Shown here one piece after another: positions 34,612 to 41,059 of a stretch of 52,782 bases of DNA (positions are counted from its first letter, which is position 1; each line of letters begins with the position of its first letter). The translations under genes and the position numbers were made by a program. Below the pieces are notes generated by a model that saw only the letters and a program-made list of their open reading frames with translations, made no database searches and had not been told where the DNA came from. The DNA lies in the IMG/VR virus record IMGVR_UViG_2718218129_000002. The stretch is one strand, 5' to 3'. The stretch comes from a virus (lineage: Duplodnaviria > Heunggongvirae > Uroviricota > Caudoviricetes).

Positions 34612-34860
34612 TCAGAGGTTGCGGGGATTTCTCCCCGCTGGTCCTCTTACTCCCCAAGTTCGTAAGCTGTGAAGACAGCGACCTCCGTCTGGTCGGTTCG
34701 GATTCGTACCTCGCAGAGGTCTTTCCTCGTTACCAGTACCGTCACTATAACGGTTAAACAGATGACGATCAGGGTGATTAACATCGCCTTTTGCTGCTTC
34801 ATAGCCTGCTTCTCCTTGACCTTTTGGTCGGTAAGAGGCTAATCTACGTATGCAAAGCAT
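34612..34860 (-). CDS. mok-like overlapping reading frame
   Basis: 82 aa frame covering hok, as mok overlaps hok in characterised hok/sok loci. Confidence 0.4.
   Translation of the reverse strand: MLCIRRLASYRPKGQGEAGYEAAKGDVNHPDRHLFNRYSDGTGNEERPLRGTNPNRPDGGRCLHSLRTWGVRGPAGRNPRNL
34621..34638 (-). terminator. hok mRNA 3' hairpin
   Basis: GCGGGGA-ttt-CTCCCCGC perfect hairpin just after the hok stop; no clear U-run. Confidence 0.4.
34647..34802 (-). CDS. hok: Hok/Gef-family type I toxin
   Basis: Hand translation MKQQKAMLITLIVICLTVIVTVLVTRKDLCEVRIRTDQTEVAVFTAYELGE; Hok-like transmembrane toxin, 51 aa. Confidence 0.8.
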   Translation of the reverse strand: MKQQKAMLITLIVICLTVIVTVLVTRKDLCEVRIRTDQTEVAVFTAYELGE

Positions 34861-34925
34861 AGATGTGGCCTCAGATTAATGTTAAGCGTCTTGCCGGACG
34901 CGTAATGTTAACTGGGGCTTTTCTC
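34850..34925 (+). ncRNA. Sok-like antisense RNA (approximate position)
   Basis: TTGACC -35 and TAATCT -10 candidates on the plus strand opposite the mok start; boundaries not determined. Confidence 0.3.
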
Positions 34926-35298
34926 TATCTGCCTTTGGTGTTCATGCCCGAGGCAGACAGCCTCAAGCACCCGCAGCTATTCTACTTAACTCCCGTTACC
35001 TCGCCAATATGAAATCAATCAGAAAGGTGATCCATAAGAGCAATAGCAAGACCATAGATTGCCATTACAGCCGCTATAGTTTCTCTGATTTATTCTGTGG
35101 AAATGGGACACAACACCCCGTCACCACCACCACTTCCTTAAATGCGCTAAGTCAGTCACAAGCCAACACTTTAGTCCGCTTTGAGCGAAAAGCTGACAGG
35201 AGTTTAAATAATCAGTTAAGGCATTACAAAAAGCATGTGCTAATAGAGATAACCAGAGTCAATATATAATCTCTTAGCTCTATTTACACTTACGTACA

Positions 35299-36003
35299 TT
35301 ATTCTTGCTTTTTGGGAGGTCTTGGATATTTCGCAGGTAATTTTTCTGTAATCTTAAATATATCCTCATTTTTTAGTATTGTTCGCATTACAAAATTTTC
35401 TATAATTACCAAAAGCGATTTAAATTCAGTTTCGTTCGGTGCCCATGTCCTGTGTGCAGCTGAGTTGCCAGCTTCGGTTACAATTTTAAGTTGGCTCCTT
35501 TCTGTTTCCCCAATAAAACCTTCCTCTTTAAGAATGTCAACCTTCTGGCCTAATGTATATCCTGGATGAATATTTAGAACCTCAACTGTTCTGTCAAAAA
35601 TAGTTCTAAGTCCAATCGCCGCTAAAATGAATGATTTATTTTGAAATGCGATGTACATTTCGTTCATTATTACATACAGCTGACGATCTTTGTTTAATAT
35701 CTCACCAAACCAAGTTGGTCTAATCTCTTCTTGCTCTTGAGTGGGATATGTTGATATATGATAGTTATATACCATACAATCATAGCCTGACTCATCTCTT
35801 TCAATGTCGTAATCTTCACTGTGACGGGATTTAATATATGTAAATATTCCGTCGCACCCCATACACTCTAATAATTTGTATTCACTTTCAGCCCAAAAAT
35901 AGTTGCCCCCATCATCCTCACTCCATTCTCTTTTTTTATGGCCTATTATGTGGCAATTTTTTTCACCTTTACAATATGGACAAGGAGCTTTAATTTTTTC
36001 CAT
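35299..36003 (-). CDS. zinc-ribbon protein with HEPN-like (DUF4145-like) C-terminal domain, candidate defence protein
   Basis: 234 aa; CPYC...CMGC zinc ribbon; C-terminal helical domain with GNSAAHRTW; AT-rich gene; the domain family is uncertain. Confidence 0.55.
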   Translation of the reverse strand: MEKIKAPCPYCKGEKNCHIIGHKKREWSEDDGGNYFWAESEYKLLECMGCDGIFTYIKSRHSEDYDIERDESGYDCMVYNYHISTYPTQEQEEIRPTWFGEILNKDRQLYVIMNEMYIAFQNKSFILAAIGLRTIFDRTVEVLNIHPGYTLGQKVDILKEEGFIGETERSQLKIVTEAGNSAAHRTWAPNETEFKSLLVIIENFVMRTILKNEDIFKITEKLPAKYPRPPKKQE

Positions 36004-36717
36004 GGTAATTATTCTGCCATTTAAATTAAAATTGATATAACATATATGCTATATGATTTATAAATGATGAACTTACGGCTCACTTTACTACAATAATTTT
36101 CATATGAGTAGTGATATGCCTCTCATTTTCTTTGTCGTTGATTGATCTGCTCTACATTGATTAACACCGAATGGGAGTAACTCCCGCTTTTGGCAGAGTG
36201 CGAACAAGCTGACCAAACCTTAGGTCCGCAGTGAGCGAGGAGCGAGCATTGGCCTTATAAGGCATCGGAGCTGTTCTCCGGAGATCCTCTGAAAGCGAAC
36301 TGTTCGGTTAAGCAGGACGCTTACAAGGCAAGCTTAGCGTGTTGTCTTGTGATGGGTTGCTTAAACCTTTTGTGAAGGTATTTTTCTATCGAAAGATAAT
36401 TAACTGAGGTTGTTATGTCATACATTCGCGTCGAGAAAGATGACCTTCAGCATTAATCAGATTATTTCTGTGAAGAGGATATGGTTACAGTCTGTAGAAC
36501 TTAGGGGATTGTAGTCCAGTGTGGTTGTTAATGAGATGGCAGAAGTAGCTGCTGTTCGTACTGCGTTGCGAAATCTCATTAGAGAAAATCGGGTTGATCC
36601 TCTAACTGATTGAATATACATTCCTATTGCTCACGAGTTGGAATGAGCTGTGACTTTTTAGCTTTAAACTTAACTTTAAGACAATTTTATGATCACGTTA
36701 GGGTGTAAGAAGGATAT

Positions 36718-37944
36718 ATGAGCGGAGAAGTATTTCATAAAAGATTGTTTCCCGTTGGCCAGGGTGGATTTAGTTTAGGCGGACTGAGGGGAAGGGATGG
36801 TAGTTTGCTTTACAGTTATGTGTATGACTGCGGAAGTGACCAATTAAATGCGTTGCGTAGGGAGATGGATGTGGCTAAATCTCTCTTTAATATTGATGAG
36901 AAATATATTGATGTGGTATACATCTCTCATTTGGATTCAGACCATATAAATGGATTTGACCATTTATGTCAGCTTGTAGATAACAAAATACGCAAGGTTG
37001 TATTACCATACCTAGATATCCATGATAGCTATTACTTAATTGCATCGGAGCTATGCTCTAATTCTACGTCAGGTCTTTTTATGGAATTTCTCATTGATCC
37101 TGTCAAATGGATAAAATCAAGGTTGCCTGAGGCAGATATATCTTTGCTTTACCCCAGTGATATTGATGATAATTTTGACCCTCCTATATTTAATAGTGAA
37201 AACATTAAGGGTAGCGCTGTAAGCTTACCAATGAAAATATCTGACTCCAAAGGAGATGTTGAATGTAACCGTTGGTTGGTTAAAAGGATTGGGGAAAACA
37301 AAACTGATACACTAATGTCATTTATTTCTTGGATACCGCCCCGTTCACGTAAGAAAATTGAAATTTTCAGTCAGCAGTTAATAGAAAATGGTTTTACTGA
37401 GTTAAGTAAGAAAAAAATGCTTAAAATATTAACTAGCACGGGGGAAAGAAAGAAATTACGCGAGTGTTATTTAAAACTTGCTGGCGATCATAATGTAATA
37501 TCAATCAATCTCTTGATTATTAATAATCAAGAAGCTGAGATGAAAATTGTTAATGAGCCTTCTCGTGAGTGGTTTAGTTTTAGAAATAGTCGGGTTGAGC
37601 GACATTTTCTCTTTGATAGAGATAAAGGAATTAGATCTGTTTTATTAACAGGTGACTCAAAGCTTAATACATCATTGTATTATAATAAATGGGCTGAATT
37701 CTATTCAAAAGTGATTAAAACGGTAAGGGTGATGACATTACCTCATCATGGTTCGGAATTAAATTTCAATCAAAAAATAATTGCGGATTTTGATAATGTT
37801 TTGTTTATAGCTCAGTCGGATGGTCATTCACATGGACACCCATCACAATCAGTAATCGATGCTATAAATTCAAGTCATGGACATAGCGTTACTTTAGTTG
37901 ACAATAATGCTAAAAATTGGGTTGATATAAAATATATATTTTAA
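36718..37944 (+). CDS. metallo-beta-lactamase-fold protein
   Basis: 408 aa; ISHLDSDHINGF resembles the MBL HxHxDH motif; C-terminal LPHHGS as in ComEC-type MBL domains; AT-rich. Confidence 0.65.
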   Translation: MSGEVFHKRLFPVGQGGFSLGGLRGRDGSLLYSYVYDCGSDQLNALRREMDVAKSLFNIDEKYIDVVYISHLDSDHINGFDHLCQLVDNKIRKVVLPYLDIHDSYYLIASELCSNSTSGLFMEFLIDPVKWIKSRLPEADISLLYPSDIDDNFDPPIFNSENIKGSAVSLPMKISDSKGDVECNRWLVKRIGENKTDTLMSFISWIPPRSRKKIEIFSQQLIENGFTELSKKKMLKILTSTGERKKLRECYLKLAGDHNVISINLLIINNQEAEMKIVNEPSREWFSFRNSRVERHFLFDRDKGIRSVLLTGDSKLNTSLYYNKWAEFYSKVIKTVRVMTLPHHGSELNFNQKIIADFDNVLFIAQSDGHSHGHPSQSVIDAINSSHGHSVTLVDNNAKNWVDIKYIF

Positions 37945-38069
37945 ACATTAGTTGTATTAATAGCATTTAAATAAATTAAGTTTGTTGGTATGTTAAAAGT
38001 TTTTGCTAGATAACCAGGTCTTTTTTGACCGATGATACAGTCTTTGTTCCACGGTGACGTGTTCACACT

Positions 38070-38100
38070 CAAATCTCCTGCAATGTGGGAGATTTGAGTA
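38070..38100. terminator. bidirectional hairpin between convergent genes
   Basis: CTCAAATCTCC-tgcaatgtg-GGAGATTTGAG, an 11-bp perfect stem. Confidence 0.4.
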
Positions 38101-38184
38101 TGGTTGTCCCTGATGTGCGATAAGCGGACCTAACATTATTATGTTTTGAATAATAAGAGACAGTCAGTTGGCTGTAAGTCTGAC

Positions 38185-39078
38185 TTAGTTATCCAAAACA
38201 GCTTTTCTTTGTATTATTGTTCTAATAAATGCTGCTGATATATGCAACACGAATTCAGCATCGTATTCCAAGACAGAAGAAACCTTGTTGCTACCATGTC
38301 TTACTGCTGGCTCTGCATTTGTATAAGCGTAAAATTTCTCTATCACCGTTAAAAGCATAGGTGAGATAGTGTTTTCTTTTCTCATCAGTTTTAATACATC
38401 GCCCAAGGTTGAGGCTGAAGGATAATAAGTCCGACACATGCTTTCTATTGCACTTATTGATTCTTTTATGGAATTTTCTGGATCCTTATGCGCACCTAAT
38501 GCAAAAGCCCGGGCTTTCACATAGTGCCTCCTTGCAGGTTCAAACTGGTCTTGCAATAAGTTGTTAGTTTCATCGATTTTTTGTTCTAATTCATTTGGTA
38601 GTGGTGTTTCTAACCTACCAGCAGAATTCATTTTCCAGTCAATATTTCGAGATGCGAATAACTCGTTCAATTTCTGACGATATGATGTAAAAGTAATGTC
38701 TTCTAATGCCTTCTTACCCCAAGTATGGCCTCTTTCTACATCTCTTTTTCTTAATAGATCTCCGATAATCTCAACAGCATCATAAAATTGAAACCAACGC
38801 ATATGTTGCAAACGCGCTTTCAAAGCATCATAGCAGTACCATGAATCGAAATCCTCATGATCTGTTTCTTGACCATTCTCTGCGCAAAGTCGCTCGATCA
38901 AAGCCTTAATACCCAACGGCTTGTTCTCATCATTCGTAATGCGGCTATCACCATCAATGTACAAAAAATTATCGAGGACAGTTACAAAAAATAAAGAGCG
39001 AAGCCACTCTGGAGCATCTTCCCGTATCGGCTTTTTATTATACTCAGGATCAAAACCATGTCTGTACGAGAACTTCAT
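38185..39078 (-). CDS. hypothetical protein, candidate defence-associated
   Basis: 297 aa from MKFSYRHGFDPEYNKK... with GGGAG Shine-Dalgarno; AT-rich; no motif recognised with confidence. Confidence 0.55.
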   Translation of the reverse strand: MKFSYRHGFDPEYNKKPIREDAPEWLRSLFFVTVLDNFLYIDGDSRITNDENKPLGIKALIERLCAENGQETDHEDFDSWYCYDALKARLQHMRWFQFYDAVEIIGDLLRKRDVERGHTWGKKALEDITFTSYRQKLNELFASRNIDWKMNSAGRLETPLPNELEQKIDETNNLLQDQFEPARRHYVKARAFALGAHKDPENSIKESISAIESMCRTYYPSASTLGDVLKLMRKENTISPMLLTVIEKFYAYTNAEPAVRHGSNKVSSVLEYDAEFVLHISAAFIRTIIQRKAVLDN

Positions 39079-39488
39079 CCCACATCTCCCATTCAACTGT
39101 ATGAATATTAGGTAATTATACAACCAACACAAATCCCTTTGCGAATACAAAAAAATCAAAAAATCACAACAAATTTAAGAACTGATCGCTTATTTCTCTA
39201 TGGATGTCCGCTTCTGGCACGAAGCGGACAAGTTACCGTAGCTGAAGGTCACTAATACTGGGGGCAGGTCAGTTCGCGTTTGTTCTCATAACGGAGTAAG
39301 ACGCTAATGGTATTAAGGTGTATTAATGATCAATGTAGATCAACGATTATTGGCGTTTAACGCTCAGATGAGAACGTTCACCGATTCTGCACGAACAAAT
39401 TCAGAATGGGGGGATTTGATATCCCCCTGGTAGATGCCTTGGTTAATGTTTATAGGTCAATTGAACTCAGAGCATCATTCTTGCCGCA

Positions 39489-40850
39489 TTAGAGATGGTC
39501 AAAAATAGACCCTTTGCGTGGAATAAGGATCTTCTCATAAAGCTTTGTTGCATAGTCATCAGTCATCCCTGAAACATAGTCGCAAATGACTCGCATACCA
39601 GCCTTCTCGTCCAAGCTAGTCTGCCGCTCGTAAATTTCCCTCGTTGATGCCGGTAGAAACCGACACGGATCGTTAGCCAGCACACCGAAAAGCTCAACAA
39701 TCAACTTTTGTCCCTTGAATTCAAGCTGCTGTACATTTTCATGCTTAATTACTTTATTTTTGACCAGTTTGAAAATTTTCAACCGTAGTGCTTCGACCGC
39801 TTCCGGAAGGACCGCATTATATTTGAGCATGCCACATTCGAATGCTGGATTCTTTGTAATAAGCTCAACGCTTGTAATCATCAGGTGAACCAGCATCCCG
39901 ATGCACTCTTTTCTCTTGTAACTTTCACCAAAAAGGCTATCCGCGACAGATTCACATGTTGCGGAAAATGTTTCTCCATGGCAGTTAGTAAATAGGGTTT
40001 CATATTCACTGAAATGCTCCATCCACATTTCTCGTGTCACCATTCCGAGAGAAATAGCATCCTCCAAATCGTGCAGCGAATACGAAATTTCATCGGCAAG
40101 ATCCATGATGGTTGTATCGAGAGCTTTATAAGAAGCTTTTTTATGATCGGATTTAGTTTGACCATCTTCAACGGAAGTAAAAAGCCTCCGATCCTGTTCA
40201 GTAAATGGTGAAAGAGCAAATTCTACAACATCGCATTCTGAATCTAGATAGCATTTTGGAGGTTTAAAATCAGATGACTTAAAGAGCCAGTTCGGCGATC
40301 CGATAGTGGCCGGGATTCTGTCTTTTGTAACCACTAGATCCGAGTATTTAACCGGATATTTCAGTATGCCTAGCAGAAGTCTGCGTGTAGGATCGAGTCC
40401 GTGTTCAACGGTATACTTATCTAGTTTCGAGAGAATGCGAAGTGTCTGACCGTTTCCTTCAAAACCACCGTAATCCTGCATACAGTAGTTAAGAGCTACC
40501 TCACCGCCGTGACCAAATGGAGGATGTCCAATATCATGTGCGAGACATACTGCCTGCATAAGATCGTTATCTGGTAAAAATTGCTCTTGCTCTTTACCTT
40601 TATATTTTATTTTCAGCTTAGCAAGAAGACCTGAACCGATTTGTGCGACTTCCATAGAATGAGTCAGTCGTGTGCGGTAGAAATCACTTTCACCCAGACC
40701 AAGAACCTGTGTTTTGGATTGCAATCGTCTGAAAGCAGACGAGTGAATCAGTCGAGAAAGGTCGTGCTGAGCTTCAGATCGAATCTCCTCCACACGATGA
40801 CTATTGGTGCCTCGTCTCTTATCCCAGACGTTTATTTCACTCCGAGTCAT
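39489..40850 (-). CDS. dGTP triphosphohydrolase (HD domain, Dgt family), likely anti-phage dGTPase
   Basis: RTRLTHSMEVAQIG and HDIGHPPFGHGGE HD-domain motifs; start set at MTRSEINVW by GAGGAA Shine-Dalgarno; about 453 aa. Confidence 0.8.
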   Translation of the reverse strand: MTRSEINVWDKRRGTNSHRVEEIRSEAQHDLSRLIHSSAFRRLQSKTQVLGLGESDFYRTRLTHSMEVAQIGSGLLAKLKIKYKGKEQEQFLPDNDLMQAVCLAHDIGHPPFGHGGEVALNYCMQDYGGFEGNGQTLRILSKLDKYTVEHGLDPTRRLLLGILKYPVKYSDLVVTKDRIPATIGSPNWLFKSSDFKPPKCYLDSECDVVEFALSPFTEQDRRLFTSVEDGQTKSDHKKASYKALDTTIMDLADEISYSLHDLEDAISLGMVTREMWMEHFSEYETLFTNCHGETFSATCESVADSLFGESYKRKECIGMLVHLMITSVELITKNPAFECGMLKYNAVLPEAVEALRLKIFKLVKNKVIKHENVQQLEFKGQKLIVELFGVLANDPCRFLPASTREIYERQTSLDEKAGMRVICDYVSGMTDDYATKLYEKILIPRKGSIFDHL

Positions 40851-41059
40851 ATTATTCCTCATTTTTACTTTGTACACTGCGGCATTCTAACGTAACTAAA
40901 TTATCAAAATAACCTATTTATTTCTGACCTAATCTTCAATAATCAATGTTGTGTGAACTTAGTTAGGCCCGCCCCTGGCACAAAACAGACAACCACGCTA
41001 GCCGTATCCTGTGCCATGAAACTGTCAATTCACATATGAATTAATGGTCTTTAATCTCG

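Follow-up and report, generated by a model that had tools for sequence, protein, structure and literature searches.

ComEC-like metallo-beta-lactamase (MBL) nucleases were shown to be immune effectors only in 2025, and only as zymogens which are cut by a protease (PMC12799240; PMC12642450; 10.1101/2025.09.03.673762). In the Hachiman, AVAST, Lamassu, DRT and canu systems such MBLs are paired with trypsin-like or caspase-like proteases; a pair of short loops inserted into the MBL obstructs its active site, a sensor-controlled protease cuts both of them, and the freed enzyme then degrades DNA in a Zn-dependent manner, leading to abortive infection (PMC12799240; PMC12642450; 10.1101/2025.09.03.673762). 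The protease-activated zymogens comprise HamM of Hachiman-MBL, the MBLs paired with Avs1, Avs2 and Avs4, CanC, the Lamassu- and DRT-linked MBLs and PADLOC PDC-M48B. Here we describe a stand-alone MBL gene (36718..37944, + strand) found in the viral record IMGVR_UViG_2718218129_000002, the whole stretch of 52,782 nucleotides (nt) being referred to below as the window. The window comes from Escherichia coli, being a Rac-like lambdoid prophage, and RefSeq genomes match it with 100% identity over positions 34900-41000. We propose, giving even weight to its being right and to its being wrong, that the product is a two-metal phosphodiesterase, most likely a DNase, encoded by the only functional gene of a small mobile cassette and acting as a single-gene anti-phage effector of the prophage.

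The initial annotation, made from the letters of the window, had described a 408-amino acid (aa) open reading frame (ORF) with an MBL-like metal-binding motif, a C-terminal LPHHGS motif like that of ComEC-type MBL nuclease domains and no signal peptide, and all of these features were recovered. The ORF has an ATG start and a guanine-cytosine (GC) content of 34%, and it corresponds to RefSeq WP_024238817.1, “MBL fold metallo-hydrolase”. The first of the two motifs, ISHLDSDHINGF, occupies residues 69-80 and LPHHGS residues 341-346. The N-terminal catalytic motifs (36820..36951, + strand) are Y36-D37-C-G-S (motif I) and H71-x-D73-x-D75-H76 (motif II, of the ComEC-type form HxDxDH), whilst the C-terminal catalytic motifs (37486..37842, + strand) are D257-H258-N259 (motif III), G312-D313 (motif IV), P342-H343-H344-G345 (motif V, of the ComEC-type form PHHGS) and H374-P375. 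In an alignment of 43 family members, with identities down to 25%, H71, D75 and H76 are invariant, D37 and D73 are at least 90% conserved, and all of the metal-binding motifs, including H258, D313 and H343/H344, are either invariant or at least 90% conserved. Motifs II and III are separated by a family-specific insert of ~160 aa (residues 98-256; 37009..37485, + strand) which carries conserved Y98, W131, R135, F217, R244, C250 and Y251.

Profile and structure-prediction searches both bear out the fold. The Pfam Lactamase_B model matches narrowly above its threshold (25.0 vs 22.7 bits) and over the N-terminal part only; the assignment is nevertheless firm, because the conserved motifs, a confident AlphaFold2 model and the structural matches add to this narrow score. 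The model, built from the 43-member alignment, has a predicted local distance difference test (pLDDT) of 86 and a predicted template modelling score (pTM) of 0.90, and is confident throughout except for the loop at residues 282-296, which lies between motifs III and IV, is disordered (pLDDT < 50) and varies in both sequence and length across the family. The 160-aa insert is structured in the model and is without a known fold. The best structural match is the MBL domain of ComEC; with HMMER, motifs II and V align with STHPDADHIGG and VPHHGS of the ComEC domain 9ic4, and the C-terminal region aligns with ComEC chains. The HxDxDH form of motif II, the PHHGS-type motif V and ComEC as the closest fold place the protein in the ComEC-type subgroup, and it is predicted to be a ComEC-type MBL fold, with the alpha-beta/beta-alpha sandwich and the five metal-binding motifs of the superfamily and an intact two-metal site. 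Hydropathy analysis gave no signal peptide or membrane segment (maximum Kyte-Doolittle mean over 19 residues of 1.14, with an N-terminus that is not hydrophobic), and the protein is predicted to be soluble and cytoplasmic. ComEC/Rec2 itself (PDB 9ic4, 9vcb) is a polytopic membrane DNA channel in which the MBL domain is a fused module (Silale et al. 2021, cited in PMC12799240). The protein described here, by contrast, is soluble, stand-alone, borne by prophages and islands, extended by the 160-aa insert and devoid of competence domains, and it scores 15.8 vs 190 bits with the ComEC_Rec2 model TIGR00361.

That the enzyme is most likely a DNase is suggested by analogy with ComEC and with the protease-gated defence MBLs, and the proposal as a whole is supported by the fact that the characterised relatives are Zn-dependent DNases which act by abortive infection (PMC12799240; PMC12642450; 10.1101/2025.09.03.673762). 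A role in defence, and with it the protection of the lysogen against other phages, is probable, and it is supported by the immediate neighbours of the gene (an anti-phage dGTPase and a PDC-S32/AbiJ_NTD4 gene), by the defence MBLs that are its only PADLOC and NCBIfam matches, by the linkage of distant family members to defence genes, by its sporadic distribution and by its low GC content. As is general for defence genes, the gene resides in defence islands and hotspots of mobile genetic elements and has a sporadic, mobile distribution. In the lysogen the nuclease would be latent, or would be without access to host DNA; upon infection it would degrade DNA, resulting either in abortive infection or in the destruction of the incoming DNA, with the 160-aa insert and/or the disordered loop 282-296 as candidates for a gate or sensor which restrains or targets the activity. 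Recombination has carried the cassette among the cargo slots of prophages and integrative islands in the Enterobacterales.

Several points weigh against a single-gene anti-phage nuclease. No experiment or curated model ties the family to defence. In PADLOC and NCBIfam the only specific matches are defence MBLs, namely an LmuA-type MBL (2e-12), an RT-associated MBL, PDC-M48B, Avs1a and 6A-MBL, and these matches are partial, at the level of motifs and far below the cut-offs. Avs1a (NF041809) and 6A-MBL (NF058524) are likewise MBL-fold and defence-associated; however, they are matched only weakly and in part (31 vs 420 bits and 23.6 vs 220 bits, respectively), and the island has neither a STAND gene, in the case of Avs1a, nor ubiquitin-like, E1, E2 or JAB neighbours, in the case of 6A-MBL. 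The defence MBL DNases known so far depend on a partner protease, which is absent here, and the main difficulty for the proposal is therefore how a lone nuclease would avoid autoimmunity. Consensus scans for a sigma-70 promoter or an intrinsic terminator of the MBL gene did no better than shuffled controls. Lastly, the IS1-disrupted copy present in one of the nine carrier E. coli genomes could reflect chance or a fitness cost.

The zymogens are among the closest known systems. The protein shares with them a ComEC-like core with C-terminal GD...PHHG...HP motifs (hhalign probability of 89% over 88 C-terminal columns against a protease-linked MBL), a home in defence islands and extra segments, absent from ComEC, between the catalytic motifs. 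It could be a latent zymogen like HamM or the Avs-paired MBLs, activated in trans by a protease of the host, of the resident prophage or of the invading phage which cuts loop 282-296 and/or the insert, although we think this unlikely. Such a mechanism would accord with the active-site-blocking insertions that protease-gated MBL DNases carry relative to ComEC (PMC12799240; 10.1101/2025.09.03.673762), and the present protein also has two additions, the insert after motif II and the disordered loop between motifs III and IV. However, whereas zymogens have a co-evolving trypsin-, caspase- or subtilisin-like protease gene next to them, a protease gene lies beside the MBL gene neither in the window nor in any of the five other stand-alone contexts, and whereas the cleavage residues of the zymogens are conserved, loop 282-296 is variable and has no conserved cleavage motif. 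Instead of two short inhibitory loops there is one structured insert of 160 aa, and the homology to the protease-linked MBL is confined to the C-terminal motifs. Matches to PDC-M48B (2e-6) and Avs1a (3e-6) are partial only, as against 2.8e-153 for a true PDC-M48B member.

The zymogens are a family distinct from that of the ~400-aa MBLs, one member of each being found side by side at a single locus. This locus (L074:1104-7242, GCA_040384145.1) is an operon encoding a lipoprotein of 518 aa, a trypsin-like protease of 452 aa, an unknown protein of 259 aa, the PDC-M48B MBL just mentioned, of 360 aa, and a 413-aa MBL of the present family; two different ComEC-like MBLs thus stand behind one protease. 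The present family is most fittingly regarded as a sister family to the zymogens among the ComEC-like MBL nucleases, one which in enterobacterial prophages operates with no genetically linked partner.

Hydrolysis of something other than DNA has also to be weighed. The phosphorylcholine esterase Pce/CbpE of Streptococcus pneumoniae (PDB 1wra, 2bib) shows that other phosphoesters are possible, and the MBL could be a phosphodiesterase of small molecules or signals, either an Apyc1-like anti-defence enzyme which would break down cyclic-nucleotide immune signals to the advantage of the prophage or a Pce-like hydrolase of phosphocholine or other phosphoesters carried as a lysogenic-conversion moron. 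We judge this improbable. Pce is secreted, bears choline-binding repeats and acts on teichoic acid, whereas the protein described here has no signal peptide and belongs to a Gram-negative host; in contrast to the anti-Pycsar enzyme Apyc1 (PF23023), it falls short of the Pfam gathering threshold and its best fold match is not Apyc1-like.

The case for a single gene as the functional unit is made by the boundaries of homology between copies. The mobile unit (window positions 36222-38017, 1.8 kb) consists of the MBL gene with ~490 nt upstream and ~70 nt downstream; in blastn comparisons the homology to other copies, at 84-90% identity, starts at 36222-36232 and ends at 37961-38017. The upstream part (36222..36717, + strand) is co-mobilised with the gene and presumably holds its promoter, whilst the 3' end (37945..38017, + strand) extends ~70 nt past the stop codon and contains the points at which homology to loci L062, L063, L067 and L069 ends. 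The cassette occupies four unrelated cargo slots. Besides the Rac-like prophage, it is found in an Enterobacter prophage (L062/L067), where it lies past the tail-fibre genes and ahead of umuDC and an AIPR gene, in a Proteus prophage (L063), between Q antiterminator/CSD/HSP20 genes and the lysis genes, and in a CP4-57-type island (L069-71), between an HNH gene and a YfjP-like GTPase gene. Contigs of IMG/VR also hold the cassette without its island neighbours, and in Serratia and a metagenome contig more distant homologues (39-44% identity) are found by themselves at the ogr end of P2-like prophages. In the enterobacterial clade the functional unit is thus a single gene with its ~490 nt upstream and ~70 nt downstream. 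The gene lies on the strand opposite to all of the surrounding prophage genes, those of the neighbouring defence modules included, which suggests that it is transcribed separately, on its own.

Within the window the cassette forms part of a four-gene island (DUF4145, MBL, AbiJ_NTD4/PDC-S32 and dGTPase genes), a defence hotspot of the prophage situated between the replication and nin-type genes. One flank carries kilR, sieB, ydaT, ydaV and DUF1627/DUF977 genes and the other hokD, DUF1367, DUF1364, DUF1133 and lysis genes followed by trkG, as annotated in the RefSeq genomes identical to this part of the window. A low-GC patch (32-39% GC) is seen at ~35-39 kb, the rest of the window being mostly 45-60% GC. 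On one side of the MBL cassette is a zinc-ribbon DUF4145 module (35242..36195, - strand; gene at 35299..36003, Pfam DUF4145 3e-11), and on the other a block (38018..40981, - strand) with Pfam, PADLOC and NCBIfam matches, which contains an AbiJ_NTD4/PADLOC PDC-S32-like gene (38185..39159, - strand; E 6e-34) and an anti-phage dGTPase gene (39489..40877, - strand; NCBIfam 560 bits vs a cut-off of 400 bits).

It could be supposed that the MBL is one component of a multi-gene system together with DUF4145, AbiJ_NTD4/PDC-S32 and/or the dGTPase, given that the four genes sit together in a shared low-GC patch of ~6 kb, that the entire patch is kept in eight E. coli genomes and that the MBL and DUF4145 genes are divergent. 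This is very improbable, however, since the MBL cassette, the DUF4145 gene and the block of PDC-S32-like and dGTPase genes are each found without the others and homology breaks off precisely between the genes; PADLOC, moreover, lists the dGTPase and PDC-S32 each as a single-gene entry. The DUF4145 module (35242-36195) occurs alone, at 91% identity, beside pinE in an e14-like prophage of strain EC11, and other E. coli strains carry the AbiJ-like and dGTPase block (38017-40981), 97% identical, beside an integrase and with no MBL gene. The block breaks off on its left (38017) just where the MBL cassette ends on its right. Both are therefore modules which are mobile separately from, and independent of, the MBL unit. 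Loci of the ET490 type had been considered as evidence of an independent DUF4145 module and were rejected in favour of EC11, being IS1 deletion derivatives of the same prophage.

The initial annotation had noted that the MBL gene is divergent from the zinc-ribbon gene, which is correct, and had suggested that the two may share a regulatory region. The latter idea does not hold: the cassette moves without DUF4145, the DUF4145 gene stands alone in the e14-like prophage, and the supposedly shared intergenic region is mostly DNA of the MBL cassette containing the relic of a pseudogene. The earlier interpretation was largely right except for this zinc-ribbon link, and it overlooked the 160-aa insert, the upstream pseudogene and the partners of distant relatives.

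Conservation among the closer copies shows that the MBL gene is real and is maintained. Homologues with 82-90% protein identity are found in Enterobacter cloacae, in Proteus and in an integrative island from gut metagenomes. Among these copies the divergence is 0.04-0.11 at codon positions 1 and 2 vs 0.18-0.33 at fourfold sites, and the gene is thus under purifying selection. Searches of 5,426 complete E. coli genomes gave nine carriers, all at least 99.9% identical and all within the same prophage; in one of the nine (NZ_CM136166.1, 607535-609538) the ORF is split by IS1A. The gene was not found in 50,697 sequenced phage genomes at either the DNA or the protein level, plasmids hold distant relatives only, mostly in Rhizobium, and a literature search for the accession of the protein found no mention of it.

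The ~490 nt ahead of the gene have had a different history. They contain a pseudogene (36415..36613, + strand) of a 65-aa ORF (MSYIRVEKDGLQYEAEYF...NQVDPLTD), recognised by tblastn (E 1e-19 to 2e-27) against intact copies at L080:5097-5294 and L081:5010-5207. Two in-frame stops, at codons 14 (TAA) and 33 (TAG), are common to the cassettes of E. coli, the CP4-type island and Proteus, the first of them being retained in Enterobacter as well; the E. coli copy is frameshifted, other frameshifts are specific to particular lineages, and the start codon has been lost in the Enterobacter and Proteus copies. Intact copies of the ORF differ from each other at 7, 6 and 27 first, second and third codon positions, with 22 synonymous vs 13 non-synonymous codons; for the MBL-linked copies the corresponding figures are 13, 11 and 12, with 4 synonymous vs 28 non-synonymous codons. 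The upstream region as a whole carries scattered 1-nt indels and diverges at 0.6-1.0 times the fourfold-site rate, although short stretches of it look constrained, including the final ~30 nt before the MBL start, which contain the ribosome-binding site and are nearly invariant. The stops, the lack of codon-position bias and the near-neutral divergence point to an old pseudogene whose inactivation preceded the spread of the cassette and which has since been decaying as a hitch-hiker.

Other accounts of this region were considered and rejected. A structured RNA or riboswitch finds no Rfam match at E <= 1 and does not fit with the near-neutral divergence or the pseudogene. A functional small leader ORF (36521..36613) does not fit with its frameshift in the copy of 90% identity, with the loss of the start codon of the ancestral 65-aa ORF in the Enterobacter and Proteus copies or with the lack of codon-position bias, and recoding or read-through as the cause of the shared stops is contradicted by the preponderance of non-synonymous differences among the MBL-linked copies.

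Partial homologues of the upstream region are found in ~100 E. coli genomes which have no MBL gene, annotated there as a 65-aa hypothetical protein. The intact ORF precedes a GIY-YIG nuclease gene in a lambdoid prophage, in the same slot between replication and nin-type genes, and in strain Nissle 1917 it lies between an ABC-three-component system, on its upstream side, and the gene of an unknown 441-aa protein. More generally, the ORF turns up repeatedly among the cargo of prophages and CP4-57-like islands, next to GIY-YIG, FRG and ABC-three-component systems and with a varying downstream gene. Its intact protein belongs to a narrow family of 34 clusters, all from the Enterobacterales, which is under purifying selection and has no match in Pfam or PADLOC. 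The idea that the ORF serves a variable effector as its dedicated partner or regulator was rejected, as the downstream gene is inconstant and is sometimes convergent; nor is the ORF a dedicated partner of the MBL.

That the MBL gene is itself decaying, hitch-hiking cargo without a present function, as might be supposed from its rarity in E. coli, the one IS1-split copy and an upstream companion ORF which is already a pseudogene, is hardly credible when the ORF is intact in every lineage, non-synonymous divergence is 3-5 times lower than divergence at fourfold sites, the pseudogene next to the ORF has meanwhile been decaying neutrally and all catalytic residues are kept without change throughout a family that numbers thousands.

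The size of this family became apparent from profile searches. There are 375 matches in a 90%-clustered database, with proteins of ~400 aa, and a search covering 1.84 billion representatives gave 2,252 representatives of 50% clusters at E <= 1e-30, nearly all of them full-length at ~400 aa, and 5,795 proteins at E <= 1e-10. The neighbourhoods of 41 family loci, drawn from GTDB species representatives, were compared by blastp clustering and gave no universal partner, no neighbour being shared by more than six loci. Certain associations do recur. A NucS-like protein (PADLOC PDC-S11) overlaps or adjoins the MBL in six loci, PHP-SMC ATPases resembling Ppl and PD-lambda-3_A are linked in five, and DEAD/ResIII helicases, one with an MrfA zinc-binding domain, are linked to distant members; a STAND-like ATPase lies directly upstream of a homologue with 39% identity. 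Further neighbours of distant members are type I restriction-modification, SIR2-pAgo, DarT and KAP NTPase genes. This linkage to sensor-like, nuclease and defence genes shows that the family behaves as a modular effector of defence islands. In Gilliamella (L065:6312-9305, L003:1143-4148) a homologue of 33% identity directly follows, with no intergenic gap, the gene of a 562-aa protein which has no Pfam match and a weak Cas4-like PADLOC match (E 2e-3), near a VasX-type type VI secretion system effector; the pair may be a two-gene system.

Some further features of the island were noted. RefSeq annotates a shorter, 158-aa version of the DUF4145 zinc-ribbon ORF (35299-36003, - strand), the protein of which has no PADLOC or NCBIfam match. 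A Hok/Gef-type toxin ORF (34647-34802, - strand), which is hokD in RefSeq, lies just beyond the island, with the DUF4145 module on one side of it and the nin-type genes on the other. A perfect hairpin, GTCCGCTTC-TGGCAC-GAAGCGGAC, is located at 39206-39229 (+ strand) in the intergenic DNA between the AbiJ-like and dGTPase genes. It is matched in ~179 E. coli genomes, always in unannotated intergenic DNA, and its relatives at L069:4148, 5465 and 7568 are located at cassette junctions of the CP4-57-type island, in one case directly before the point where the MBL cassette begins on its left. The hairpin may be a junction or recombination element, or a terminator.

The analysis of the cassettes shows how defence hotspots are built from independently mobile modules of 1-3 kb with sharp, reusable junctions. 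If the MBL defends its host, a one-gene system is added to the arsenal of E. coli prophages, and the question becomes how a lone and potentially lethal DNase is silenced, a question which points first of all to the insert. The family to which it belongs is a much larger sister family than that of the zymogens, and one which no model in Pfam, NCBIfam or PADLOC covers. A wider and more tentative proposal, which may well not hold, is that the family, with its thousands of 50% clusters, is a very large one of self-contained ComEC-like nuclease immune effectors in which the insert serves as a built-in sensor or gate. If this is true, one polypeptide would do the work that is divided between sensor, protease and zymogen in the MBL modules of Hachiman and AVAST, whilst other lineages would wire the same MBL module to STAND, SMC/PHP, helicase or NucS-like partners.

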